Source: a virus. From it: a stretch of DNA of 64,000 bases. Position numbers and translations under genes: made by a program. This document shows, in pieces, positions 53,848-64,000 of this stretch. The stretch lies in IMG/VR virus record IMGVR_UViG_3300045391_000819, positions 67,722 to 131,721 of that record, one strand, 5' to 3'. The first letter of the stretch is position 1. The number at the start of each line of letters is the position of its first letter. Below the pieces are notes generated by a model. It saw nothing but the letters and a program-made list of their open reading frames with translations, had not been told where the DNA came from and did no database searches.

Positions 53848-54209
53848 ATTTTGGCTTTACTCCATTTTCTTTTATGTGTAAAATACGAATTAGCTATCTC
53901 GTTTCTACGTTCTAATAATCTTTTTAATTTTGTATATAATCTTATCCTAGTCTCTTCTCTCACATCTGGTTTGTAAATATTATCTAAAGTCCTTATATTC
54001 TTTATAATTACTTTTATTTCCTTTCTAAGTTTATGTCTACTTACAGCAATCGTTCCAAAGTTTTTTATAAAGATAGCGTTATAATTGGCTTCAGATAGAT
54101 TTCTCTTCACACCATTTTTCCAGAAATAGGCATTAACCTCTTTAACAATCTTCAAGTCCTTGCCTAATTTTTCTGCCGTTGCTTTATTAAAGTAATCAGG
54201 CGTTTTCAT
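53844..54209 (-). CDS. HU/IHF-like DNA-binding protein
   Basis: Basic; IFIKNFGTIAVS resembles the HU/IHF 'I.GFG.F.V' motif. Confidence 0.55.
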   Translation of the reverse strand: MKTPDYFNKATAEKLGKDLKIVKEVNAYFWKNGVKRNLSEANYNAIFIKNFGTIAVSRHKLRKEIKVIIKNIRTLDNIYKPDVREETRIRLYTKLKRLLERRNEIANSYFTHKRKWSKAKI

Positions 54210-54550
54210 TAACTATTATCTATCTGTATCAACATCCCAACTTTTACATCGAGAGTTAGATTTATATTCTCGTTAATCAAATATTCCTTTCTTCTACCTG
54301 CTGACTTCTTTATTAAACCTACTCTACTTAGCTTAGATATTGCATTCTTTAGAGAGTCTTCATTAAATATTTCGCTTTTAATAATGAGGTCTTTGGTCTC
54401 TTGCGTAATCTTATATACTAAAAAATAGGCAAGAACAGTCAACTCCGATTCAGAAAGTTTAATTTCTGATAAAAGGCAAAAAATCTTAAGCAAAGTCTTA
54501 GCCTGCTCGATCTTCGATTTAGTTTTCTTTACAACTTTAACGAGCTGCAT
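54209..54550 (-). CDS. Winged-helix-like hypothetical protein (start corrected to MQLVKVVK)
   Basis: The ORF-track start (54793) runs through tRNA genes. ATG at 54550 follows the 54580-54611 promoter. LKNAISKLSRVGLI is wHTH-like. Confidence 0.6.
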   Translation of the reverse strand: MQLVKVVKKTKSKIEQAKTLLKIFCLLSEIKLSESELTVLAYFLVYKITQETKDLIIKSEIFNEDSLKNAISKLSRVGLIKKSAGRRKEYLINENINLTLDVKVGMLIQIDNS

Positions 54551-54579
54551 TAGTTGGTTTTTATTAATTGATTCTGAAG

Positions 54580-54611
54580 CAAATATAATAAAAAAAGCTG
54601 AACTTACCAAA
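54580..54611 (-). promoter_or_regulatory. Bacteroidota sigma-A promoter (start of the morphogenesis operon)
   Basis: TTTG-N20-TATATTTG. Confidence 0.8.
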
Positions 54612-54656
54612 TCCATAAGGACTTGATAATCAGCTTTAACAATATTATAACGATTG

Positions 54657-54729
54657 CGTGCATGGAAGGAATCGAACCCACAACCTTCGGTTTTGGAGAC
54701 CGCTGCTCTACCAGTTGAGCTACACACAC
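54657..54729 (-). tRNA. trnW: tRNA-Trp(CCA)
   Basis: Cloverleaf; anticodon loop CT-CCA-AA; G73. Confidence 0.92.
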
Positions 54730-54735
54730 GTTTAG

Positions 54736-54811
54736 AACTCCCTGTCTGATTCGAACAGACACACAACTCTGGTTCGTAGCCAGAAGCACTCATCCATTAT
54801 GCTAAGGGAGC
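54736..54811 (-). tRNA. trnR: tRNA-Arg(ACG)
   Basis: Stem TCTGG/CCAGA, loop CT-ACG-AA. Confidence 0.9.
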
Positions 54812-54853
54812 AAGATCACCAGCATTTTCTCCAATTAAATTACCCGTTGGGTT

Positions 54854-54878
54854 AGAACGAGTTAGGATTCGAACCTAA
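54854..54878 (-). pseudogene. Orphan tRNA T-arm plus acceptor 3' strand
   Basis: TTAGG-TTCGAAT-CCTAA-CTCGTTC with no D or anticodon arm upstream. Confidence 0.5.
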
Positions 54879-54890
54879 AAGACTGGCGTG

Positions 54891-54965
54891 GGTGACTAAT
54901 CGGGATCGAACCGATACTCCTCTGCGTCACAGGCAGATACTTTAACCGTTTAAGCTATAGCCACC
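54891..54965 (-). tRNA. trnH: tRNA-His(GTG)
   Basis: Loop CT-GTG-AC; encoded G-1:C73 pair. Confidence 0.93.
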
Positions 54966-54970
54966 ATATG

Positions 54971-55043
54971 TTGCCTTGTTACGATTCGAACGTAAGTCGT
55001 CTGTTTCAGAGACAGAAATGTTTGACCGCTACACTACAAGGCA
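54971..55043 (-). tRNA. trnQ: tRNA-Gln(CTG)
   Basis: Loop CT-CTG-AA; T1:A72. Confidence 0.92.
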
Positions 55044-55046
55044 GTG

Positions 55047-55117
55047 TTCCCCTCGACAGACTCGAACTGCCACTTAGAAGCTTCAAAGGCTTCTGTGCTG
55101 CATTACACTAAAGGGGA
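55047..55117 (-). tRNA. trnQ: tRNA-Gln(TTG)
   Basis: Stem GAAGC/GCTTC, loop CT-TTG-AA; T1:A72. Confidence 0.88.
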
Positions 55118-55120
55118 GTG

Positions 55121-55196
55121 TGTGGATGATAAGAATCGAACTTACTTCAAGTCACGGAGCTTCAATCCGCCGCTATACCATATCAGCTACATCCAC
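55121..55196 (-). tRNA. trnF: tRNA-Phe(GAA)
   Basis: Stem GCGGA/TCCGT, loop TT-GAA-GC. Confidence 0.88.
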
Positions 55197-55532
55197 ATAT
55201 TTTAAAAAGTCTTGCTCATATCTAGTAGTATGTTCTAATCTATGACAATTAGCACATAATAATTCACATTTGTTTATTTCTTCCAACAAGATTTTCCAAG
55301 ACTTATGAGATACATTCCCTATGTTAAAACTTTTTGTAGATTCATCTTTATGATGAAATTCCAAAGCACCGGGATGATTATATCCACATTTTACACATTT
55401 TCCGCCAAGAAGATTTATAGCTTTAATCTTATTTCTATATCTTCTTATTTTGGTATTACATGAATGACAGCGTGTTCTATGACGTAATTGAAGCTGTCTA
55501 AATTCTCTTTTACAAATTTTACATATATCCAT
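55173..55532 (-). CDS. HNH homing endonuclease 1 (stop codon inside tRNA-Phe)
   Basis: CxxC N-terminus, LGGKCVKCGY...LEFHH...KCELLCANCHRLEH. Confidence 0.88.
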   Translation of the reverse strand: MDICKICKREFRQLQLRHRTRCHSCNTKIRRYRNKIKAINLLGGKCVKCGYNHPGALEFHHKDESTKSFNIGNVSHKSWKILLEEINKCELLCANCHRLEHTTRYEQDFLKYVDVADMV

Positions 55533-55536
55533 AATA

Positions 55537-55568
55537 CAAATATACGAAAAATTTTTGGTAATACCAAA
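55537..55568 (-). promoter_or_regulatory. Sigma-A promoter of HNH-1 (probably leaderless mRNA)
   Basis: TTTG-N20-TATATTTG; ATG only 4 nt downstream. Confidence 0.8.
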
Positions 55569-55582
55569 TTTGTTCTACCAAG

Positions 55583-55657
55583 AGCCTCTGGTCAGCCACG
55601 ATCTGACACTCCTCTGTTTACAAGACAGGAGCTTTACCTTCTTAAGCTACATGAGGC
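55583..55657 (-). tRNA. trnT: tRNA-Thr(TGT), atypical (possibly degenerate)
   Basis: Loop CT-TGT-AA; T-loop ATCGTGG instead of TTCRA; bulged A in the acceptor stem. Confidence 0.6.
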
Positions 55658-55695
55658 ATTTGACGGTGTTTATTGAGCTTTTCCGTCAGCTCTCG

Positions 55696-55771
55696 TCGGG
55701 ATGGCTGGATTCGAACCAGCGCATTCATGGCTCCAGACCACGTCGGAACAACCTGACTTCCGTACATCCCG
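55696..55771 (-). tRNA. trnP: tRNA-Pro(TGG)
   Basis: C1:G72, A73; loop TC-TGG-AG; canonical T arm. Confidence 0.9.
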
Positions 55772-55776
55772 ATAAC

Positions 55777-55801
55777 AAAAAACCCTCGAAGAATCGAGGG
55801 C
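55777..55801 (-). terminator. Attenuator C terminator
   Basis: GCCCTCGA-TTCT-TCGAGGGT followed by TTTTT, about 5 nt before tRNA-Pro. Confidence 0.88.
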
Positions 55802-55829
55802 TAACAATTTATGCAGATTTAAAGTTCAC

Positions 55830-55916
55830 TTATCTAAGTGTATCACCATCACGCATAGTTAGCCCTATCCCTGTGGGTTGGGTAAACCAAAAACGTGTAT
55901 GTTGAAACTTTATCAT
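55830..55916 (-). CDS. Leader peptide C, MIKFQHTRFWFTQPTGIGLTMRDGDTLR (28 aa)
   Basis: Manual translation. Codons 4-15 are all F/Q/H/T/R/W/P, the amino acids of the downstream tRNA block. Confidence 0.9.
   Translation of the reverse strand: MIKFQHTRFWFTQPTGIGLTMRDGDTLR
55858..55866 (-). promoter_or_regulatory. Antiterminator strand C
   Basis: AGGGCTAAC is a perfect 9-bp complement of GTTAGCCCT (55797-55805), which overlaps the terminator 5' arm. Confidence 0.82.
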
Positions 55917-55986
55917 TTTAAAAGAGGAATCCTACTTATTTCACCTATCGGCATAACCTGCGATATACGCATTTCAGATTCGAGAA

Positions 55987-56018
55987 CAAACTTACGACAA
56001 TTTTTTGAAATCACCAAA
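55987..56018 (-). promoter_or_regulatory. Sigma-A promoter of tRNA block C
   Basis: TTTG-N20-TAAGTTTG. Confidence 0.85.
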
Positions 56019-56052
56019 TTTATTTTGGGATTTTAACAAAAATTGATTATTG

Positions 56053-56121
56053 TGGGGCAGGAAGTACTCGAAACTTCGGGTTTGCGTTTTACAGACGTTA
56101 CCATTGCCCTGATTCTACCCC
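56053..56121 (-). tRNA. trnY: tRNA-Tyr(GTA), highly atypical
   Basis: Acceptor GGGGTAG/CTGCCCC and a normal T arm. CTGTAA loop has an irregular stem; short D arm; no long variable arm. Confidence 0.55.
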
Positions 56122-56127
56122 ATATAG

Positions 56128-56213
56128 CGGAGAGCATTGGATTCGAACCAATGGGCCGATTTCTCGACCACAGTTTAGCAAACTGCTCTAATTGACCACT
56201 CTAGCAGCTCTCC
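56128..56213 (-). tRNA. trnS: tRNA-Ser(GCT)
   Basis: Loop TT-GCT-AA; long variable arm; G73. Confidence 0.92.
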
Positions 56214-56216
56214 GGT

Positions 56217-56303
56217 TGGCGGTGGGAACAGGATTCGAACCTGCACAGCTGTTACACCTTCATGGTTTTCAAGACCAATAAGCCCTCTCTAATGCGTCCC
56301 ACC
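56217..56303 (-). tRNA. trnS: tRNA-Ser(TGA), CCA encoded
   Basis: Loop CT-TGA-AA; long variable arm; G73-CCA; unusual D arm. Confidence 0.85.
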
Positions 56304-56308
56304 GAATG

Positions 56309-56382
56309 TCCCTCTGACTGGTCTCGAACCAGCACTATACAGATTTTAAGTCTGCTGCGTCTCCCAATTGCGCCACAGAGGG
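56309..56382 (-). tRNA. trnL: tRNA-Leu(TAA), short variable loop
   Basis: Loop CT-TAA-AA; Leu-type D arm GGCGCAATTGGGAGACGC; A73. Confidence 0.9.
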
Positions 56383-56386
56383 TTAG

Positions 56387-56460
56387 TGCCGATGACAGGG
56401 GTCGAACCTGCGCAGTACTGCTTCTAAGGCAGTTGTGTCTCCCAATTGCACCACATCGGC
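56387..56460 (-). tRNA. trnL: tRNA-Leu(TAG), short variable loop
   Basis: Loop CT-TAG-AA; A73. Confidence 0.9.
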
Positions 56461-56463
56461 TTG

Positions 56464-56537
56464 TACCTGTAGAGGGTCTCGAACCCACACCTTATAGTTT
56501 TTGAAACTATTGCGTCTCCCAATTGCGCCATACAGGT
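56464..56537 (-). tRNA. trnL: tRNA-Leu(CAA), short variable loop
   Basis: Loop TT-CAA-AA; A73. Confidence 0.9.
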
Positions 56538-56539
56538 AT

Positions 56540-56573
56540 AAAAAAGAAAACCCCCCAGTTTTTAGCTGGAGGG
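56540..56573 (-). terminator. Attenuator B terminator
   Basis: CCCTCCAG-CTAAAAA-CTGGGGGG followed by TTTTCTTTTTT, abutting tRNA-Leu(CAA). Confidence 0.9.
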
Positions 56574-56603
56574 TCAAGTTAAATCCCGTAGGATAAAACA
56601 TCT

Positions 56604-56672
56604 TTACATACCACTTCCAGCTCTCAGTTCACTGAGATAATACAGACTGGAATATGATAAGCAATTTTTCAT
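56604..56672 (-). CDS. Leader peptide B, MKNCLSYSSLYYLSELRAGSGM (22 aa)
   Basis: Manual translation. Codons 5-14 are all L/S/Y, the amino acids of the downstream tRNA block. Confidence 0.9.
   Translation of the reverse strand: MKNCLSYSSLYYLSELRAGSGM
56616..56622 (-). promoter_or_regulatory. Antiterminator strand B
   Basis: AGCTGGA is the 7-bp complement of TCCAGCT (56564-56570) in the terminator 5' arm and loop. Confidence 0.78.
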
Positions 56673-56782
56673 TTTGATTTCTGGAATAGTTCTTTTACTT
56701 TTGTAAATACCCAAGTCAATGCGTCGATGATGGGTTCTTTAAAGAAAGCACCAATAACAGCACCAATTAATAGGTTAATCAT
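56669..56782 (-). CDS. 37-aa putative membrane peptide MINLLIGAVIGAFFKEPIIDALTWVFTKVKELFQKSK
   Basis: Manual translation; hydrophobic N-terminus; its TGA overlaps the ATG of leader B (ATGA). Confidence 0.7.
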   Translation of the reverse strand: MINLLIGAVIGAFFKEPIIDALTWVFTKVKELFQKSK

Positions 56783-56812
56783 AATTTATAAGGTTTAATT
56801 AAAAAACGAATG

Positions 56813-56844
56813 CAAATATACGGAAAATTTCTGAAATTACCAAA
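56813..56844 (-). promoter_or_regulatory. Sigma-A promoter of tRNA block B
   Basis: TTTG-N20-TATATTTG. Confidence 0.85.
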
Positions 56845-57688
56845 TTCTTCCTCTATTTTTTATTTTTCTATATCTAACTGCTTCATCTGCAAGGTTTCGC
56901 ATCATAGTTGGATTCCTTGTAGCCTTGTGATATTCATTGGCAAGTCTCTCATTTATTCTTGCGTGAGTCTGGCCTTCCCATATTCTAGTCGTATAATCAC
57001 GGCCTACAAATGGATGCCATAGATGGAAGATACAACCTCTTTTAGTCTTGTGTTTACCGTACAAGGTATCAAGTGCTCTAAGCAAAGCTACATCCTCACC
57101 ACCCCATCCTACAAATCTTTCGTCAAAACAGCCAATCGCTTCATAGGCTTCTCTTGGAAATATCATAGCCATAGCTCCATATCTGTGTCCATATCTGCTC
57201 TTATCCCTATGATCGCTTAACATATGATCTTGTGGATGACATATAATGCGTACAGGACATTCAGGTACTGAAGCTAAAATATCCTCAGTTATACATCTAT
57301 TCAAACGATACAAATGACGATAAGGAACGAACCATAAATGCTTGTCAAGATTTTCTAATATCTTATCTGCACATGATTCTACTATGTGACCGGGCAGGTA
57401 AGCATCAGCATCAAGGATAGCTATAACCCTTCCTCTTGATTTTCTAACAGCATCATTAAGGGCTTCACCCTTACAAAATACTCTACCTCTGGAGCGTCCC
57501 ACAACAATTTCTGCTTGTGGAAGTTCAGCTCTCCAGTATCTCATTAGCCACTGAAAGGCTGCTAGTCTCCAAGGATCAGTAGAAGAAAAAGGGATTATAA
57601 TGCTTATTTTCGGTCTTTTTCTAAATATTCTTCTCCTATCTCCTAGTAAAAATTTTCTTAATCTCTTCAAAAACGTCAAAGATTTCAT
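56837..57688 (-). CDS. Glycosyltransferase, GT2/GT7-like
   Basis: ISIIIPF, ILDADAY (DxD), GCFDERFVGWGGEDV. Confidence 0.88.
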   Translation of the reverse strand: MKSLTFLKRLRKFLLGDRRRIFRKRPKISIIIPFSSTDPWRLAAFQWLMRYWRAELPQAEIVVGRSRGRVFCKGEALNDAVRKSRGRVIAILDADAYLPGHIVESCADKILENLDKHLWFVPYRHLYRLNRCITEDILASVPECPVRIICHPQDHMLSDHRDKSRYGHRYGAMAMIFPREAYEAIGCFDERFVGWGGEDVALLRALDTLYGKHKTKRGCIFHLWHPFVGRDYTTRIWEGQTHARINERLANEYHKATRNPTMMRNLADEAVRYRKIKNRGRIW

Positions 57689-58364
57689 GTTGTTTGTCTA
57701 TTATAATGTTTCTATCAATAAGTTGGGTCACGCCAATTTCAAGCTTAACACCTAAGCTTGCGCTATAATCCAACCATTTAAACAATCCACCCTCTTGGTG
57801 GGAGTGACTTAACATTCTTGGTGAGATTTCAATTCGTCTTGGGATATTAAAAGCATCAGCTAAAACAATCCCATGTAAAGACGAACTGACAATTTTCTTA
57901 CATTTTCCTATCTCGCTTATTACCTTCAGCGGATCGTCTGATACCCTAATTATCTTAGGGTTGTATTTTAGAAAGGTAGGATTTTTTTCAAGGGTTTTAT
58001 CTGTCCAATGCGGAACAAGTCCTAGGTCATATTGTTTATCTTCAATTTTGACAAGCTCATCAGCAAGCAGACCGGGATCACCTAATACAAAATTGCCCTT
58101 TAATCCTTTTGCAGTTAATGGCCCACGTAAGGCCAAAATCTTTGCATAAGGTAAGTCCAATTTTGTATTTTCATGCAGTTTACCAGCACCAGCAATTACT
58201 CCATCCCAATATTTTGGCAAATGTTCAAGGATAGAACCGATAACTACTAACTCTGCATAATCTGGATCAGTCCACTGAGAATCCAATCCTGTAAATCGCT
58301 TTATCAGCAAGGAAGAAAGCAAATCGCCAAAATTTCTTTTCGCTTGCCAATAGTATAATCTCAT
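57636..58364 (-). CDS. Polysaccharide pyruvyltransferase family protein
   Basis: NFGDLLS, GSIL, ALRGPLT, GDPGLL, GLVPHW, IVSSSLHGIVLADAFNIP. Confidence 0.88.
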   Translation of the reverse strand: MRLYYWQAKRNFGDLLSSLLIKRFTGLDSQWTDPDYAELVVIGSILEHLPKYWDGVIAGAGKLHENTKLDLPYAKILALRGPLTAKGLKGNFVLGDPGLLADELVKIEDKQYDLGLVPHWTDKTLEKNPTFLKYNPKIIRVSDDPLKVISEIGKCKKIVSSSLHGIVLADAFNIPRRIEISPRMLSHSHQEGGLFKWLDYSASLGVKLEIGVTQLIDRNIIIDKQHEIFDVFEEIKKIFTRR

Positions 58365-58439
58365 CGTCGTTCGTTAAACTTTTAGTAAAGTTACTAATAA
58401 ATGAGATAGGTTCAAAATAGATAATTATTTTTGATGACA

Positions 58440-58895
58440 TTATAAGCGACATAAGTGGTCAGCAGCTTTCGCTGCTATCATGTCGTCTGGCTTTATTCTA
58501 GTCTGGTATCCTAGTGAGTTTGCCCATCCTGTCAAAGCAGGAATCAAGTTAGTAGATTTTGTAATCTTTTTATTGTTATAGTCAAACTCTAATGCTTCGA
58601 TCTTCAATGGAATTTCAGCCACTATCATTTCAGCACACTCAATTGTAAGTTCTCCTTCTTTCCAAAGTCTAGTAAAGATGTCACGGATTCTTGGAATACG
58701 CTGTTTCAAATAGATGTAGTGAGCACCACGCTGTCCGTAACGGAATACAATAGCTGTTACAAATACTGACTTTCCCCCATAATTTTGTGAATCGGTTGCT
58801 ATGTAAATCTTTAGATTGTCCTGTTTGACTTGTTCCTGACAATGTTCTATTACATTTACAAGACCTCCCTCTTCTGTCTTGAAGTACTTTTCCAT
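58440..58895 (-). CDS. RNase H-like protein, YkuK/DUF458 family
   Basis: IYIATDSQ, RLWKE, EFDYN, IKPD..IAAKAADH. Confidence 0.8.
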   Translation of the reverse strand: MEKYFKTEEGGLVNVIEHCQEQVKQDNLKIYIATDSQNYGGKSVFVTAIVFRYGQRGAHYIYLKQRIPRIRDIFTRLWKEGELTIECAEMIVAEIPLKIEALEFDYNNKKITKSTNLIPALTGWANSLGYQTRIKPDDMIAAKAADHLCRL

Positions 58896-58907
58896 TGGTT
58901 TTTATTG

Positions 58908-58981
58908 TGGAGGTGATGGGATTCGAACCCACCCCAAGTTGCTTGCAAAGCATCTTCGCCAACCATAGGCCATGCACCCCC
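58908..58981 (-). tRNA. trnA: tRNA-Ala(TGC)
   Basis: G3:U70; loop TT-TGC-AA; A73; unusual D arm. Confidence 0.88.
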
Positions 58982-58985
58982 GTAG

Positions 58986-59058
58986 TGCTCATACTAAGAC
59001 TCGAACTTAGACTCACCTGAGTATCAGTCAGGTACTTTAACCATTAAGCTATATGAGC
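58986..59058 (-). tRNA. trnI: tRNA-Ile(GAT)
   Basis: Stem CCTGA/TCAGG, loop CT-GAT-AC. Confidence 0.93.
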
Positions 59059-59061
59059 ATG

Positions 59062-59134
59062 TGCTCCTACTCGGACTCGAACCAAGACTCTTGTGGATAT
59101 AAGCCACCTGCTTTCACCGTTAAGCTATAGGAGC
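59062..59134 (-). tRNA. trnI: tRNA-Ile(TAT)
   Basis: Stem GTGG/CCAC, loop CT-TAT-AT; body paralogous to the adjacent Ile(GAT). Confidence 0.88.
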
Positions 59135-59296
59135 GAGATTATGATCTTTAATGGCTTTCTCAAGTCTTTTGTTCGCTTTAATCAATTCCGAGATAGATTT
59201 GAAAGTTCCAAGCTGTCTCAAAACCTCTATGTCATCTACTTCCAAAATCGCCATATAACCTTTAAATTTTCTTTCTTCCGCAGTGATTTGTAGCAT
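59120..59296 (-). CDS. 58-aa hypothetical protein (start corrected; stop inside tRNA-Ile(TAT))
   Basis: The ORF-track start overlaps tRNA-Asp. ATG at 59296 follows the 59320-59350 promoter. Confidence 0.55.
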   Translation of the reverse strand: MLQITAEERKFKGYMAILEVDDIEVLRQLGTFKSISELIKANKRLEKAIKDHNLAPIA

Positions 59297-59319
59297 CTTT
59301 CCCACTTTTACATGATTCT

Positions 59320-59350
59320 CAAATATACATAAGTATACCGTATACCCAAA
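59320..59350 (-). promoter_or_regulatory. Internal sigma-A promoter
   Basis: TTTG-N19-TATATTTG. Confidence 0.7.
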
Positions 59351-59393
59351 TAGGGATACGCCAGCGAATAGTATAAGAAATATCCAAAACAAG

Positions 59394-59470
59394 CCGTGAG
59401 CAAGGGGTTCGAACCCTCCTGATTGTACTCCGTGACAGGGAGACGGCCACTCCAAGCAGCCCCGCCCACG
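59394..59470 (-). tRNA. trnD: tRNA-Asp(GTC)
   Basis: Loop CT-GTC-AC; G73; starts immediately after the stop of the 59471..60838 gene. Confidence 0.9.
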
Positions 59471-60838
59471 TTATTTTATTTTTCTCCAAACTCTATTGTG
59501 AACGATATTAAATAGGTGTTCATATTGATCGTGATTAATTCCGGGTGGTAAAAGTTCATCCACTCCATCACAAACAGATTGAATACCTCTAAAATATCCC
59601 CAAGGCATCGGAAATTTACATGCCGAATCATCTATAACCAGATAGCCTCCAACTTTGAGCAAAGGCCCATAGTTTATAATGTCACTCTGAACGCAGGATT
59701 TCGCATGACAACCATCTATATATAGAATATCCAACAGTAATCCGCTTGCGCTTTCTATAACTTTGGGATCAGTTGAATCTCCTTTCAGTATAATATAATC
59801 AGCCCAGATATTAAACTGGTCATGAATCTTTCTTATATCTGCTTCATAATCACTTTCCCAATTTATTTCAGCAGGCGATAAAGGCGTCACCCCGTATCGC
59901 ATCACTGATTTTCCAGCTAAATTTGCTAGCATACCAATCAGTGAAAGAATTTGACCTCTGAATACTCCGATTTCTAAGAAAACAAAATGTTCAGGCATCT
60001 TATCTACCAATAACTTCCACATCCATTGAAAACTACGTTCTCCAAATCCCCAAGCATTCTGTTCAACCCAATCTCTGTGTGCCTTTAATTCTGGTGAATT
60101 ATTGACCTTCTTTTTAAAAACATCATTGGTTTTAACATTGTATTGCTCAGTAGGCTGCCACAGTTTTATTACTTCATCTATAGAATTATATTCATCATCA
60201 AGTAAATCAATGATCTTAGTCATATCCGTCCTTCCGTTACCATGAATTATAGAAGGTTCGGTTCCAGTATTCTTGTTTATCAATCTACCACTCTTATATT
60301 CAAATTCACCTTCCGCTATAAATGAATAACATTGAAATATCTCGCAGTTATAATCTAAAGTTATATTACCCTTTAGAAATACGTTTGTAAAGAAGAGTTG
60401 GTCATCATCTGCATATCCTACTGAGTATTCTTTAAGTAAATTCAAGAACTTTTCAATAGGAGCCATATAACTACCTGAGTTTAAATACTTATATAAGGAT
60501 TCATTTTCAGGATAACTATTTGCCAAGGTTGGATCAGGCCAGCAATTCTTCTCAGTCGAAAATACTATTTGGTCTTGGAAACGAGCATCATAGATTTTCT
60601 CTATATTCTCCAATCCGTCTAAGAATATTACATCATAAGCATCTACGAAAATAAAGTGAGTGTAGCCTGCAAGTAATTTCAAATATTGTTGTAATAATAT
60701 TATCTTAGTTCCAAATCCCTTCCATCTGCTTTTTTTACCTAAAATTACTAGGTCTATACCTTTGCGTTCTAAACTATATTTTAATCTATCAAGTCCTTCA
60801 TCTTCCTTAGTTGCTACAGTAATTACTACAGTTCTCAT
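59471..60838 (-). CDS. PLOD/LH3-type glycosyltransferase domain fused to a class I SAM methyltransferase
   Basis: N-terminus VITVAT...W.GFG.KI..L...FVDAYDV...FSTEKNCWPD...YLNSG...DDDQLFFT...LD...IFQ...HGNG. C-terminus FLEIGVFRG...ILYIDG.H...D...Y..LLK.GG..V.DD. Confidence 0.88.
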   Translation of the reverse strand: MRTVVITVATKEDEGLDRLKYSLERKGIDLVILGKKSRWKGFGTKIILLQQYLKLLAGYTHFIFVDAYDVIFLDGLENIEKIYDARFQDQIVFSTEKNCWPDPTLANSYPENESLYKYLNSGSYMAPIEKFLNLLKEYSVGYADDDQLFFTNVFLKGNITLDYNCEIFQCYSFIAEGEFEYKSGRLINKNTGTEPSIIHGNGRTDMTKIIDLLDDEYNSIDEVIKLWQPTEQYNVKTNDVFKKKVNNSPELKAHRDWVEQNAWGFGERSFQWMWKLLVDKMPEHFVFLEIGVFRGQILSLIGMLANLAGKSVMRYGVTPLSPAEINWESDYEADIRKIHDQFNIWADYIILKGDSTDPKVIESASGLLLDILYIDGCHAKSCVQSDIINYGPLLKVGGYLVIDDSACKFPMPWGYFRGIQSVCDGVDELLPPGINHDQYEHLFNIVHNRVWRKIK

Positions 60839-61449
60839 GGTTTATATTGATACAGAGCCTTCTTGTCCCTTTTCTCAACTATCTTAAATCCTATATTAAG
60901 TAGGTAATCTTCTATCTTTTGATGGTCATAATATACATCCTGTGTACTTACATCATCAAAACAAAAACAAGCTCCTTCGTTTATTCTAGTCTCGAAAAAT
61001 TGTACTTCCTTAAGAATTGCTTCTACTGAATGTGGCCCATCAAAGTTTACAAACGAATACTTATCAACTAACTTTCTACTAATACTATATACAGGAATCC
61101 CATCTTTATAATAATCAAAAAAATCCAAATCACTCATATTAATGAAAACGAAATGAACGTTCTTATGATTAGCGTATGGATAAAGTAACTGCAAACAATC
61201 AGCCTTCATCGCTTCTGTATAATCCAATCTAACAAAATGATTCTGCTTATGTTCATAAAGCACTGAACCATATGGGTCTATAGCAACTGCTATTTTATTC
61301 GGACAATGACGATGGATAGAATCTATTATCTCTTTGGTTCCACCTCCCATCCTAAGACCTATCTCTAAACAAGCTCCTTCAGTATCTTTGCTTAACTGTA
61401 CTCCTTTATATACTAAGTCGTAATCCCAACTGTCGCCGTGTAGTTTCAT
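60835..61449 (-). CDS. Class I SAM-dependent methyltransferase
   Basis: CLEIGLRMGGGT, AIDPY, FVNFDGPH, FCFDD. Confidence 0.82.
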   Translation of the reverse strand: MKLHGDSWDYDLVYKGVQLSKDTEGACLEIGLRMGGGTKEIIDSIHRHCPNKIAVAIDPYGSVLYEHKQNHFVRLDYTEAMKADCLQLLYPYANHKNVHFVFINMSDLDFFDYYKDGIPVYSISRKLVDKYSFVNFDGPHSVEAILKEVQFFETRINEGACFCFDDVSTQDVYYDHQKIEDYLLNIGFKIVEKRDKKALYQYKP

Positions 61450-62210
61450 TTAAAAGGATTATAGTAAATAGATTGTTTTCCTTCTCTGTAACCTCTTAAA
61501 ACTTTGTGATACTCTTGCCATTGTTCGCCAGCATGATTCTCCTTCCAAGTTTGATATGGTGTACCACCTGCATCTATATGGTCAATATCTATATAAGGTA
61601 GAAACACGTTTATAAAACCAGCGAGCTGACTTCTGACTGATGCAAGTGAATCATCAAATCCGTAAAGTCTAGGTTGATAAAGGTATCCAATTTTGTCAAG
61701 CAATGCTGATGAATACATTTGACATGTTCCCATAACATGATTGACTTTCTCTGCTACCATCCATTTTTCACCCGGTTTATGTGGAAGCATTATGAGTTCT
61801 GATTTGTAAAAATCTGTACGCTCTGGTGATTCCCATAAGTCTTTCCTTTTAAGTCCAACCTGTCCAATTGTAGGCTCTCTTCTAATAGCTTCTTCCATTT
61901 CATCCACCCAATCATAACTATTAACTATTACATCATTATCCATTTTAATACAATTCTCACCTTCTTTACGAAACTTCCAAGCTCTATTTATTGCTTCTGC
62001 TGTTCCAATGTTATGTCCATTTATTAGAATAGTTGCATTAGGAAAATCATGATATAATTGTTTGGTTTCATCACAAGAATTATTATCTATTATAAATATT
62101 CTATGTTTGTGATAATCAATTCTGTCAAAGAGCGATTCTAATGTGCGTCGTGTATATTCCGTCCGTTTATTCTCTTCGGTATCATACACAGCCATTGCAA
62201 TTAATGCCAT
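61446..62210 (-). CDS. Glycosyltransferase family 2
   Basis: IIDNNSCD, NIGTAEAIN, KMDNDV (DxD), YGFDD. Confidence 0.85.
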   Translation of the reverse strand: MALIAMAVYDTEENKRTEYTRRTLESLFDRIDYHKHRIFIIDNNSCDETKQLYHDFPNATILINGHNIGTAEAINRAWKFRKEGENCIKMDNDVIVNSYDWVDEMEEAIRREPTIGQVGLKRKDLWESPERTDFYKSELIMLPHKPGEKWMVAEKVNHVMGTCQMYSSALLDKIGYLYQPRLYGFDDSLASVRSQLAGFINVFLPYIDIDHIDAGGTPYQTWKENHAGEQWQEYHKVLRGYREGKQSIYYNPFK

Positions 62211-62223
62211 TGGTTTTATTTAG

Positions 62224-62296
62224 TACTCCCAACCAGATTCGAACTGGTGTTCTAAGCTTGAAGGGCTTCTGTCCTCGACCACTAGACGATAGGAGC
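62224..62296 (-). tRNA. trnE: tRNA-Glu(TTC), C at position 33
   Basis: Glu-type D arm (GTCTAGTGGTCGAGGAC); stem AAGC/GCTT; loop CC-TTC-AA. Confidence 0.85.
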
Positions 62297-62302
62297 AATT
62301 AG

Positions 62303-62375
62303 AGCGGAAAGAGAGAATCGAACTCTCATGTCCAGTTTGGAAGACTGGTGTAATCAGCCATTATACGACTTCCGC
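62303..62375 (-). tRNA. trnG: tRNA-Gly(TCC)
   Basis: Stem CCAGT/ACTGG, loop CT-TCC-AA; U73. Confidence 0.93.
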
Positions 62376-62452
62376 TGCTTACGGTTTTACACCCACTAGC
62401 AGATGGGTGCTGTGCTGCCACACTCTAGTTGCTAAACCGAAAAAAGCACTCG
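62376..62452 (-). ncRNA. Structured spacer RNA 3' of tRNA-Met with HDV/theta-like helix order
   Basis: GTGCT/AGCAC, CGGTTT/AAACCG and CACCCA/TGGGTG helices; no obvious catalytic C. Confidence 0.35.
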
Positions 62453-62523
62453 TTGCGAGGGATGGAGTTGAACCACCCCAAAACAAAGTTATGAGCCTTG
62501 TCGGGCCACCGGGCCTCCTCACA
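62453..62523 (-). tRNA. trnM: tRNA-Met(CAT), truncated D arm
   Basis: Loop CT-CAT-AA; T1:A72; T-loop TTCAACT. Initiator vs elongator identity is uncertain. Confidence 0.75.
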
Positions 62524-62704
62524 ATATTCTTACACCTGTATCAATAGTCCAAAGGATTATCTTACCTTCTCTTACATTCTCTAAGAGTTTTTTAAGCTCA
62601 TAGACTGAGTCTTTAAGAGGTAGGGATGAAAGCCAGTGTATTAGCTTATCCCTATTTCCTTTGTACTTTACTATACTTGCAACCTTTACTTTAGGTTCTT
62701 TCAT
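62519..62704 (-). CDS. 61-aa hypothetical protein (stop inside tRNA-Met)
   Basis: ORF track; fills the gap between the tRNA-like RNA and tRNA-Met. Confidence 0.55.
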   Translation of the reverse strand: MKEPKVKVASIVKYKGNRDKLIHWLSSLPLKDSVYELKKLLENVREGKIILWTIDTGVRIL

Positions 62705-62705
62705 G

Positions 62706-62857
62706 CTGTAAGGGTAGGATTCGAACCTACATGTGGGGATTCAAATAGATACACAAGATTTTTTACCATTAGTGGTCAACCCGATTATATCTATTCTATT
62801 TCACCATTCCACGCCCCTGAGACAAAGGGGTGCGTCTGCCAGTTTCGCCACCTTACA
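62706..62857 (-). ncRNA. 152-nt tRNA-like RNA with an 83-nt variable-arm insertion
   Basis: Acceptor TGTAAGG/CCTTACA, Leu-like D arm, CCCCT-TTGTCTC-AGGGG arm, perfect T arm GTAGG-TTCGAAT-CCTAC. Confidence 0.75.
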
Positions 62858-62864
62858 ATTTTCG

Positions 62865-62936
62865 CTGGAGTGGAGAATTTCGAAATCTCAACCTAATGCT
62901 TAACAGGCAATTGCTCTCCCTTTGAGCTACACTCCA
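62865..62936 (-). tRNA. trnN: tRNA-Asn(GTT)
   Basis: T1:A72, G73; loop CT-GTT-AA. Confidence 0.9.
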
Positions 62937-63319
62937 TTATGATGTTCTTTTCTATGACAATTTGCACACAAAACTACGCACTTGTCAATTTCTTTTAATA
63001 ATCTTTTTCTTCCCCATGTTGCCATACCGCCCACCTGAAAATCTTTTTTACTTGGATCAACATGATGAAACTCTAAACAAGCAATATGCTTTTCTCCACA
63101 TCTCTCACAGGCTAAATTTCTTTTAAGTTCTCTAAACCATTCTTTTAATCTGTGGTTACTTTCTCTGGCTTTATCTATATACTTTTGTTTATTCTTTTGA
63201 TAATGTTCTCGTATATAAATTTTTCTACACTCTTTGCACATTGATTGGAAACCATTTCCTTTCCTATGGAAATTTGTTTCATTTTTTGGTAGATGACATC
63301 TTATACATATTCTTTCCAT
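62927..63319 (-). CDS. HNH homing endonuclease 2 (start corrected to MERICIRC; stop inside tRNA-Asn)
   Basis: CxxC...CxxC N-terminus, CERCGE..ACLEFHHVDP..K.F...KCVVLCANCHRKEH. The ORF-track start overlaps tRNA-Arg. Confidence 0.88.
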   Translation of the reverse strand: MERICIRCHLPKNETNFHRKGNGFQSMCKECRKIYIREHYQKNKQKYIDKARESNHRLKEWFRELKRNLACERCGEKHIACLEFHHVDPSKKDFQVGGMATWGRKRLLKEIDKCVVLCANCHRKEHHNGV

Positions 63320-63323
63320 AAAA

Positions 63324-63355
63324 CAAATATACATAAAATATTCGAAACTACCAAA
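63324..63355 (-). promoter_or_regulatory. Sigma-A promoter of HNH-2 (probably leaderless mRNA)
   Basis: TTTG-N20-TATATTTG; ATG 4 nt downstream. Confidence 0.8.
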
Positions 63356-63372
63356 TATTTTAGAAACTTTCG

Positions 63373-63445
63373 AAGAGCTGATGTGAGTCGAACACATATT
63401 CTTTGCTTAGAAGGCAAGAGTCCTCATCCATTAAACGACAGCTCC
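63373..63445 (-). tRNA. trnR: tRNA-Arg(TCT)
   Basis: Loop CT-TCT-AA; canonical T arm. Confidence 0.88.
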
Positions 63446-63448
63446 ATG

Positions 63449-63523
63449 TACATCTGAGTAGATTCGAACTACTGGTCTCCCACTTGTAAGGAGGGCGCTT
63501 TCAACCAACTAAGCTACAGATGC
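63449..63523 (-). tRNA. trnV: tRNA-Val(TAC)
   Basis: Loop CT-TAC-AA; T-T mismatch in the anticodon stem. Confidence 0.9.
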
Positions 63524-63585
63524 GTTTGCTGACTTTGACGTACGTACGCAAGTGTTATTCGTCAGCAATATTCCACTCGTCAATG

Positions 63586-63660
63586 AGGACAGGGAGGGAT
63601 TCAAACCCCCGACTTTACTGCTTTGCAGGCAGTTGCATTCAATCACTCTGCCACCTGTCC
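63586..63660 (-). tRNA. trnC: tRNA-Cys(GCA)
   Basis: Loop CT-GCA-AA; U73. Confidence 0.92.
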
Positions 63661-63663
63661 ATG

Positions 63664-63737
63664 TGCTCCGACTCGGACTCGAACCGAGAACCTTCTCCTT
63701 AAGAGGGAGTAGCTCCACGCAATTGAGCTATCGAAGC
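63664..63737 (-). tRNA. trnK: tRNA-Lys(CTT)
   Basis: Loop CT-CTT-AA. Confidence 0.9.
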
Positions 63738-63740
63738 GTG

Positions 63741-63815
63741 TGCACTCGGAGGGCATCGAACCCCCGACCCCAAGATTAAAAGTCAAGTACTCTACCAAAA
63801 CTGAGCTACGAGTGC
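63741..63815 (-). tRNA. trnK: tRNA-Lys(TTT)
   Basis: Loop CT-TTT-AA; stem CTTGA/TCTTG has two T-T mismatches. Confidence 0.88.
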
Positions 63816-63845
63816 AAATAAAAAACCCTGCTTGTTCAGCAGGGC
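63816..63845 (-). terminator. Attenuator A terminator
   Basis: GCCCTGCT-GAACA-AGCAGGGT followed by TTTTTATTT, directly abutting tRNA-Lys(TTT). Confidence 0.9.
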
Positions 63846-63875
63846 TTCAGTATTTTCAGTAAAATGACTATGTTG

Positions 63876-63968
63876 TTATTTGTCACCACTAGACAATACG
63901 ATCCCTGCACCAGCAAGCTCTTTCGCTCTGCCGTTGCCACAAATCATATTATCCACTATTAAATACAT
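63876..63968 (-). CDS. Leader peptide A, MYLIVDNMICGNGRAKELAGAGIVLSSGDK (30 aa)
   Basis: Manual translation. Codons 4-17 use only, and all of, I,V,D,N,M,C,G,R,A,K,E, the 11 amino acids of the downstream tRNA block. Confidence 0.88.
   Translation of the reverse strand: MYLIVDNMICGNGRAKELAGAGIVLSSGDK
63903..63908 (-). promoter_or_regulatory. Antiterminator strand A
   Basis: GCAGGG duplicates the terminator 3' arm and can pair with CCCTGC (63839-63844) in the 5' arm. Confidence 0.7.
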
Positions 63969-64000
63969 TTTCTGCTGTTTTGTAAATTTGGACTGCAAAC

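Follow-up and report, generated by a model that had tools for sequence, protein, structure and literature searches.

Putative leader-peptide attenuators ahead of transfer RNA gene blocks in a crAss-related soil phage and its relatives

Ribosome-mediated transcription attenuation is a textbook mode of gene control. In the enterobacterial attenuators (thrL with Thr/Ile codons, the ilvGMEDA leader with Ile/Leu/Val codons, and trpL, hisL, pheL, and leuL), a promoter is followed by a short leader with regulatory codons and by an intrinsic terminator in front of the genes, and the position of the ribosome sets the choice between antiterminator and terminator. The pheM leader has codons for the amino acid served by the translation-apparatus component that it controls. 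Why and when phages use transfer RNA (tRNA) genes of their own has long been debated, and codon usage, decay of host tRNAs, and counter-defence have each been proposed. Here we describe the tRNA gene array of a crAss-related soil phage, contained in a 64,000-nucleotide (nt) stretch of viral DNA (hereafter the window; bases 67722-131721 of the single 131,721-base contig of IMG/VR record IMGVR_UViG_3300045391_000819). The array has the enterobacterial layout of promoter, short leader open reading frame (ORF) with regulatory codons, and intrinsic terminator in front of each of three tRNA blocks (A, B, and C). Comparison with related phages and modelling of the leader RNA suggest that these are three ribosome-mediated (trp/his/ilv-type) transcription attenuators with tRNA genes as the regulated genes, a reading to which we assign a probability of about 0.72.

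ARAGORN at default settings detected 25 tRNA genes, all on the minus strand, and a relaxed threshold added Ser-TGA (about 56220-56304) and Tyr-GTA (about 56040-56125); Rfam also scored 56220-56304. The 25 default and two relaxed-threshold genes account for the 27 tRNA genes that an earlier note on this DNA had described, and every one of the 20 amino acids is represented, Arg in both block A and block C (Table 1). The same note had proposed a leader of 22-30 amino acids for each block, and its positions and run residues were exact. Each leader contains a run of codons (the sensor run) that specifies only, and all, the amino acids of its own block. Among the 1,395 ORFs of 15-45 amino acids that start with ATG in this genome, the true leader alone has an in-set run covering the whole set of block A and, likewise, of block C, and with the block B set a run of 10 is reached by the true leader alone. 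Counted over codons 2-18, the assignment of the three leaders to their own blocks gives 37 in-set codons, compared with 7-21 for the five other assignments. The match extends to codon boxes and isoacceptors. The Arg codon is AGA in leader A, the block of which has tRNA-Arg(tct), and CGT in leader C, the block of which has tRNA-Arg(acg); the Ile codons of leader A are ATA and ATT, and block A encodes tRNA-Ile(tat) and tRNA-Ile(gat). In leader B, the run draws on both boxes of Leu and both of Ser. A separate idea, that the NNT-rich leaders represent a choice of slow wobble codons, gained no support, since NNT already accounts for 60-80% of codon use in these boxes across the genome.

A hairpin with a U-tract precedes each block, as had been claimed, and the three leader hairpins are the strongest terminator-like sites in 54000-64000. 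They end, U-tract included, 6-11 nt before the first tRNA. The distance from leader stop codon to hairpin had been given as 28-30 nt; a near-constant spacing was found, although it is 27-28 nt by the hairpin limits used here. The segments of 6-9 nt said to be complementary to the 5' arm of each terminator were also present (core sequences in Table 1), such that a strand 4-9 nt past each run is able to pair with that arm. The Bacteroidota-type promoter TTTG-N18-21-TAnnTTTG occurs 12 times in the window, compared with 1.9 expected, and these occurrences include the sites at B and C. The two ends of the contig share a 69-nt overlap (window 63932-64000), which indicates that the contig is circular, and its cut falls inside leader A, so promoter A lies outside the window. 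Joining the ends completes promoter A as TTTG-N20-TAtgTTTG. The description of full promoters at B and C, and of a final TTTG only at A within the window, was therefore borne out by the pattern search, with the circular junction supplying the remainder of A.

Relatives were sought by a terminase-alignment search that gave 80 IMG/VR loci, from which those with a tRNA array upstream of the terminase gene were kept together with two GenBank isolates. The comparison set comprises 22 leader/block pairs from 10 phages, i.e., this phage and nine relatives with terminases 30-57% identical, including Leptolyngbya phage Lbo-JY46 and Cellulophaga phage phi17:2. The same layout was found in all 22 pairs, and all 22 leaders are open for 19-39 codons; the leader peptide sequences themselves are not conserved across the 10 phages. 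Leader content follows tRNA block content in these relatives, down to the families of Arg codons, in a comparison that the earlier note had named beforehand as one that could refute its reading. Of 148 block amino acids, 131 occur among codons 2-18 of the leader of their block, compared with 84 of 292 non-block amino acids (Fisher 1e-34, if the pairs are taken as independent), and 263 of 374 codons are in-set, compared with 128 +/- 17 (maximum 200) when block sets are permuted. The signal is specific to the reading frame: in-set codons make up 70% of the ORF frame and 29-34% of the other two frames, which carry 25-32 stops. In eight phages, 155 of 191 run codons are read under strict wobble rules by a tRNA of the same block. 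Nearly all of the remaining run codons are NNY codons of four-fold boxes whose sole phage tRNA has U34; the others are four ATA codons in blocks with Ile(gat) only and one AGG codon in a block with Arg(acg) only. The Arg codon box was associated with the Arg isoacceptor of the block (6:0 and 2:6; p 0.01), and in L091, where block 1 has Leu(tag) as its only tRNA-Leu, both Leu codons of the run are CTN.

Phages in which tRNA genes have moved between blocks are the informative cases. In L059 (terminase 40% identical), tRNA-Asp and tRNA-Asn are in block 3 and both Arg tRNAs, including tRNA-Arg(acg), are in block 1; leader 3 contains six Asn codons, three Asp codons, and none for Arg, and leader 1 contains AGA and CGC but lacks codons for Asp and Asn. 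L091 and L100 (37-38%) have two blocks, one with Pro, Gln, His, Arg-acg, Leu, (Ser), and Tyr and the other with Ala, Asp, Asn, Trp, Thr, Arg-tct, and others, and leader 2 of L100 contains all 13 block amino acids within the 23 consecutive codons after the start codon. Cellulophaga phage phi17:2 has blocks with Pro, Glu, Gln, His, Leu, and Arg; with Ala, Lys, Ile, Gly, Met, Asp, Thr, Val, and Arg; and with Tyr, Ser, Asn, Trp, and Phe. Its leaders match these blocks, and two of them are annotated merely as the hypothetical proteins gp077 and gp078.

Each leader RNA was folded as it stands before synthesis of the 3' arm, with its end at the terminator loop and a ribosome footprint set on each codon in turn. 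In these folds, the G/C core of the 5' arm was paired at 0.7-1.0 while the A site was in the run, and in 15 of the 16 leaders examined the point at which pairing collapsed was -3 to +1 codons from the final codon of the run. The partner strand begins 0-9 nt after the run in 14 of the 16, which accounts for the collapse at the end of the run and suggests that the run comprises the positions at which a waiting ribosome leaves the antiterminator uncovered. All 16 terminators are predicted at -9 to -21 kcal/mol and end 6-13 nt before the first tRNA; the distance from stop codon to hairpin is 21-32 nt. Compared with dinucleotide shuffles, the duplex energies of the 16 leaders gave a combined p of 3e-14. 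In this genome, pairing of the terminator 5' arm fell from 0.8 while the ribosome was in the run to 0.43 once it had passed for A, and from 0.86 to 0.10-0.16 for B. Duplex C has an energy of -15.7 kcal/mol (z -3.2, p 0.01 vs. shuffles), and the full-length equilibrium fold gave terminator C a probability of 0.01-0.29 for a ribosome within the run, rising to 0.97 once the ribosome had left it. Full-length equilibrium folds with a ribosome mask also showed the expected switch in several relatives.

Table 1. Features of the three predicted attenuators and their tRNA blocks, with window coordinates
Feature	Position	Strand	Remarks
Promoter A, 3' end (last TTTG of -7 box)	63996..64000	(-)	remainder across circular junction
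Leader ORF A	63876..63968	(-)	30 codons + stop
Sensor run A	63918..63959	(-)	codons 4-17; 11 amino acids, the exact block A set
Antiterminator strand A	63896..63909	(-)	core GCAGGG; starts 8 nt after run
Terminator A	63816..63848 (hairpin 63848-63822)	(-)	11-base-pair stem and U-tract, just before tRNA-Lys
Block A	58907..63815	(-)	13 tRNAs: Lys x2, Cys, Val, Arg-tct, Asn, Met, Gly, Glu, Asp, Ile x2, Ala
Promoter B	56813..56844	(-)	TTTG-N20-TAtaTTTG
Hydrophobic 37-codon ORF	56669..56782	(-)	stop overlaps leader B start (ATGA)
Leader ORF B	56604..56672	(-)	22 codons + stop
Sensor run B	56631-56660	(-)	codons 5-14; Leu/Ser/Tyr only, the 3 amino acids of block B
Antiterminator strand B	56609..56621	(-)	core AGCTGGA; starts 9 nt after run
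Terminator B	56539..56575 (hairpin 56575-56549)	(-)	intrinsic
Block B	56040..56537	(-)	Leu x3, Ser-tga, Ser-gct, Tyr-gta
Promoter C	55987..56018	(-)	TTTG-N20-TAagTTTG
Leader ORF C	55830..55916	(-)	28 codons + stop
Sensor run C	55872-55907	(-)	codons 4-15; 7 amino acids of block C
Antiterminator strand C	55857..55867	(-)	core AGGGCTAAC, perfect 9-nt complement reaching into terminator 5' arm
Terminator C	55773..55802 (hairpin 55802-55781)	(-)	intrinsic
Block C	54656..55771	(-)	Pro, Thr, HNH-like gene with own promoter (55537-55568), Phe, Gln x2, His, Arg-acg, Trp
Sub-threshold Rfam matches	63818-63894 (leader A), 56539-56665 (leader B)	(-)	likeness in shape only

In the mechanism that we propose, a run codon would be decoded slowly when the charged tRNA that reads it is scarce, and the ribosome would wait in the run. 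The free antiterminator strand could then capture the terminator 5' arm as the arm emerges, and RNA polymerase would continue into the tRNA block. Fast decoding throughout the run would instead bring the ribosome onto the antiterminator strand, so that the terminator would form and the block would not be transcribed. Because the product is the very tRNA under test, such a circuit would constitute a closed, isoacceptor-resolved negative-feedback loop on tRNA supply, and the match of codons at the level of isoacceptors argues for the sensing of tRNA species rather than of amino acids. We consider it fairly likely that phages of several lineages carry multiplexed tRNA-supply sensors of this kind, in which leader ORFs list the codons of the downstream tRNAs and gate their genes by attenuation, so as to top up tRNAs that the host lacks or has lost (including by nuclease cleavage) and to shut off once supply is restored.

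Several findings, including some of the folding results, weigh against the attenuator reading. Duplex A (-12.9 kcal/mol) and duplex B are weak when compared with shuffles (z -0.5 and -0.3, respectively), and in full-length equilibrium folds terminators A and B are dominant at every ribosome position, with C alone switching in this genome. The state before synthesis of the 3' arm was used because A and B do not switch at equilibrium; it is the kinetically relevant state, but one that is model-based. In silico, the ribosome position decides whether the 5' arm is sequestered, but terminators A and B are not displaced in full-length folds. Folds that lack the ribosome altogether also show the 5' arm paired, at 0.43-0.70 here and at up to 1.0 in relatives, which means that the classical state, in which the lack of translation leads to termination, is missing. 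No clear 1:2 protector hairpin was seen, and read-through is accordingly predicted for an untranslated leader. The co-variation has exceptions as well. The run of L091 leader 1 includes Ser, and no tRNA-Ser was found; a Cys codon follows the leader 1 run of L059, and tRNA-Cys is located elsewhere; and 17 of the 148 block amino acids are absent from codons 2-18. The phages share ancestry, such that the p-values overstate independence. Extra tRNA would not relieve amino-acid starvation, and none of the sequencing runs that carry this DNA is an RNA run.

The organization of blocks A and C also counts against strict gating. Promoter-like sites occur inside block A (63324-63355 and 59320-59350) and block C (55537-55568), and 2.4-2.8 kb of inserted genes lie within these blocks. 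Within block A, the tRNA genes are separated by an HNH gene, small ORFs, and three genes for sugar modification (a GT2 glycosyltransferase (GT), a methyltransferase-like protein, and a PLOD-type GT fused to a methyltransferase). The partition into three tRNA blocks that had been described does exist, but A and C are not contiguous, being broken by protein genes and further promoters; likewise, the statement that each leader gates its matching block agrees with leader content but must be qualified for the internal promoters and inserted genes. The corresponding blocks of L063 and L059 are without such a gene cassette (block 3 is unbroken, and block 1 has at most one small ORF), and the leaders of the present phage seem to list the ancestral block. 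Distal tRNAs of A and C are reachable from the internal promoters, so gating is probably strict only for the promoter-proximal tRNAs, and the distal ones may partly escape it.

The proposed attenuators could be attributed to other selective roles. Phage tRNAs can counter defences that target tRNA, and inducible counter-defence might be the main selected role of the same attenuators: host anticodon nucleases or tRNA depletion would stall the leader ribosome and switch on the block with the replacement tRNA. The circuit would respond to the loss of any tRNA that reads a run codon, and the isoacceptor-level matching fits the sensing of tRNA species, not amino acids. Nonetheless, we found no link of the arrays to a defence in the window or in the relatives, and the sensors cover all 20 amino acids rather than the few usual nuclease targets, a breadth that general feedback on tRNA supply fits better. 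Plain supply feedback explains the same data, the circuit would respond equally to any shortage, and we regard counter-defence as an unlikely main role. It is quite improbable that the leaders report general translation status or amino-acid starvation instead of tRNA abundance, with the tRNA blocks turned up at any slowing of host translation, or that read-through of untranslated leaders serves as an early-infection timer. Attenuators do respond to the supply of charged tRNA whatever its cause, and the antiterminator is predicted in the absence of a ribosome (0.43-1.0), such that a scarcity of ribosomes alone would open the gate; however, a general sensor would have no need for runs that list exactly the amino acids of their own block, follow tRNA moves, and take their Arg and Leu codons from the boxes that the isoacceptors of the block read.

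There may also be no switch, the hairpins being fixed, leaky terminators and the small ORFs either chance or peptides with another role. The behavior of terminators A and B in equilibrium folds, where they are undisplaced, is what fixed terminators would show, and the antiterminator pairing of these two leaders is within the range of shuffles. Such an account leaves unexplained a composition match that is frame-specific and co-varies over 10 phages while the peptides are not conserved, an antiterminator strand at a fixed distance after the run, and the combined significance of pairing over the leaders examined, and it appears very improbable to us. The supply-feedback attenuator remains the reading that we prefer.

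Other genes of the region are of interest in their own right. Sugar-modification cargo lies between tRNA sub-blocks at 56837-58364 and 59471-62210 (-), and an RNase H-like gene, a pyruvyl transferase gene, and a GT2 gene are found between block A and promoter B. The RNase H-like protein (PF04308, E 4e-22; 58440-58895, minus strand) is encoded directly after the last block A tRNA, and the Lbo-JY46 gene at the matching place is annotated like KVP40 Orf299. The 455-amino-acid glycosyltransferase/methyltransferase gene in block A was tried as a guide to further arrays, but of 57 IMG/VR loci none of the 39 closer ones had a tRNA gene, and the gene was set aside as cargo. Blocks A and C each contain a small HNH-type gene, 62927-63319 (-) and 55173-55532 (-), respectively, with its own Bacteroidota-type promoter; the latter runs into tRNA-Phe, and a weak Pfam HNH score was reached only by the former. 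The ATGA-type coupling of the hydrophobic ORF to leader B (Table 1) has a counterpart in L065, where a similar hydrophobic ORF of 42 codons (185-313) is coupled to its leader in the same manner; an ORF likewise ends just before leader 1 of L100.

Two unusual tRNA-related elements were observed. Between tRNA-Asn and tRNA-Met, window positions 62700-62865 (-) contain a tRNA-like element in which an insertion of ~85 nt replaces the variable arm; its D arm is type-II-like, its T arm is normal, and its anticodon loop has GTC and, at position 37, a pyrimidine. ARAGORN did not call this element; its shorter counterpart in L059 (6185-6280) was called as a 96-nt tRNA-Asp(gtc). In L091 (5527-5655) and L100 (2584-2708), tRNA-Glu has its own promoter and is without a terminator. 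A short ORF rich in Glu (6 in 18-26 codons) begins 17-18 codons upstream of this tRNA-Glu and stops within the 5' part of the tRNA, which may represent a different, translation-dependent control of one tRNA.

The genome has a guanine-plus-cytosine content of 36.5%, and its terminase and portal genes are located 2.3 kb downstream of the tRNA array. The closest GenBank terminases are those of Leptolyngbya phage Lbo-JY46 (52% identity) and of Cellulophaga phages phi17:2 and phi4:1 (30%), with crAss-like phages also among the matches. At the DNA level, comparison with GenBank phages gave matches to single tRNAs only. Identical or near-identical DNA was present in contigs of four soil or rhizosphere sequencing runs, and these contigs were uninformative on the leaders. 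Lbo-JY46 (L140, PP438436.1), the closest isolate, has a cyanobacterial host on record, yet Bacteroidota-type promoters (TTTG...TAnnTTTG) precede its leaders, and the host assignment may be worth a check. Its three leaders lack annotation.

If tRNA genes are indeed preceded by a sensor that works codon by codon, phage tRNA supply is on demand and not constitutive, and the sensor would reveal what the phage measures, namely the decoding speed of specific codons down to the isoacceptor level. If each leader lists the tRNAs of its own transcription unit, this is a rule that can be read from sequence and that would aid the annotation of tRNA arrays, where the leaders are currently unannotated or recorded as hypothetical proteins, as are two in phi17:2. 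Attenuation would be extended from enzymes of amino-acid metabolism to the decoding machinery itself, and the leaders could be used in engineering as small programmable devices that signal whether chosen tRNAs are available. The cultured members of the group (Cellulophaga phages phi17:2 and phi4:1 with C. baltica, and Lbo-JY46) make the idea directly testable.

The tRNA array as such resembles those of T4, T5, mycobacteriophages, and crAss-like phages, which are likewise large arrays in genomes of lytic type with homing endonuclease genes interspersed. We found no account of leader-peptide or attenuator control of phage tRNA genes in full-text searches that covered few subscription journals, such that absence is not proof. 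T-box riboswitches also sense the state of a specific tRNA and set read-through by a choice between terminator and antiterminator. A T-box, however, binds uncharged tRNA directly by its specifier loop and needs no ORF, whereas the ribosome would be the reader in the phage leaders, and Rfam gave no T-box match in 54000-64000 at E <= 1. Two Rfam matches were below the gathering threshold: leader A with Trp_leader (RF00513; 25.6 bits vs. 41) and leader B with the trpB motif (RF04312; 31 vs. 59). The pheST attenuator of E. coli is similar in that the product controlled through cognate leader codons belongs to the translation apparatus; it differs in that this product is a synthetase, serves one amino acid only, and is encoded in a cellular genome, and the control is not feedback on the tRNA itself. 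The enterobacterial attenuators regulate biosynthetic enzymes, while the phage leaders precede tRNA genes. One enterobacterial leader may read several amino acids, with a run of one to three of them; a phage leader covers 3-13, mostly with one to three codons each. Unlike their enterobacterial counterparts, the phage leaders have a codon choice that follows the downstream isoacceptors and no clear 1:2 protector hairpin, and their three phage-encoded units jointly cover the whole code. The phage leaders differ from known attenuators in their tRNA targets, in the range of 3-13 amino acids that one leader covers, in codons matched to isoacceptors, in lacking the protector hairpin, and in their phage setting.

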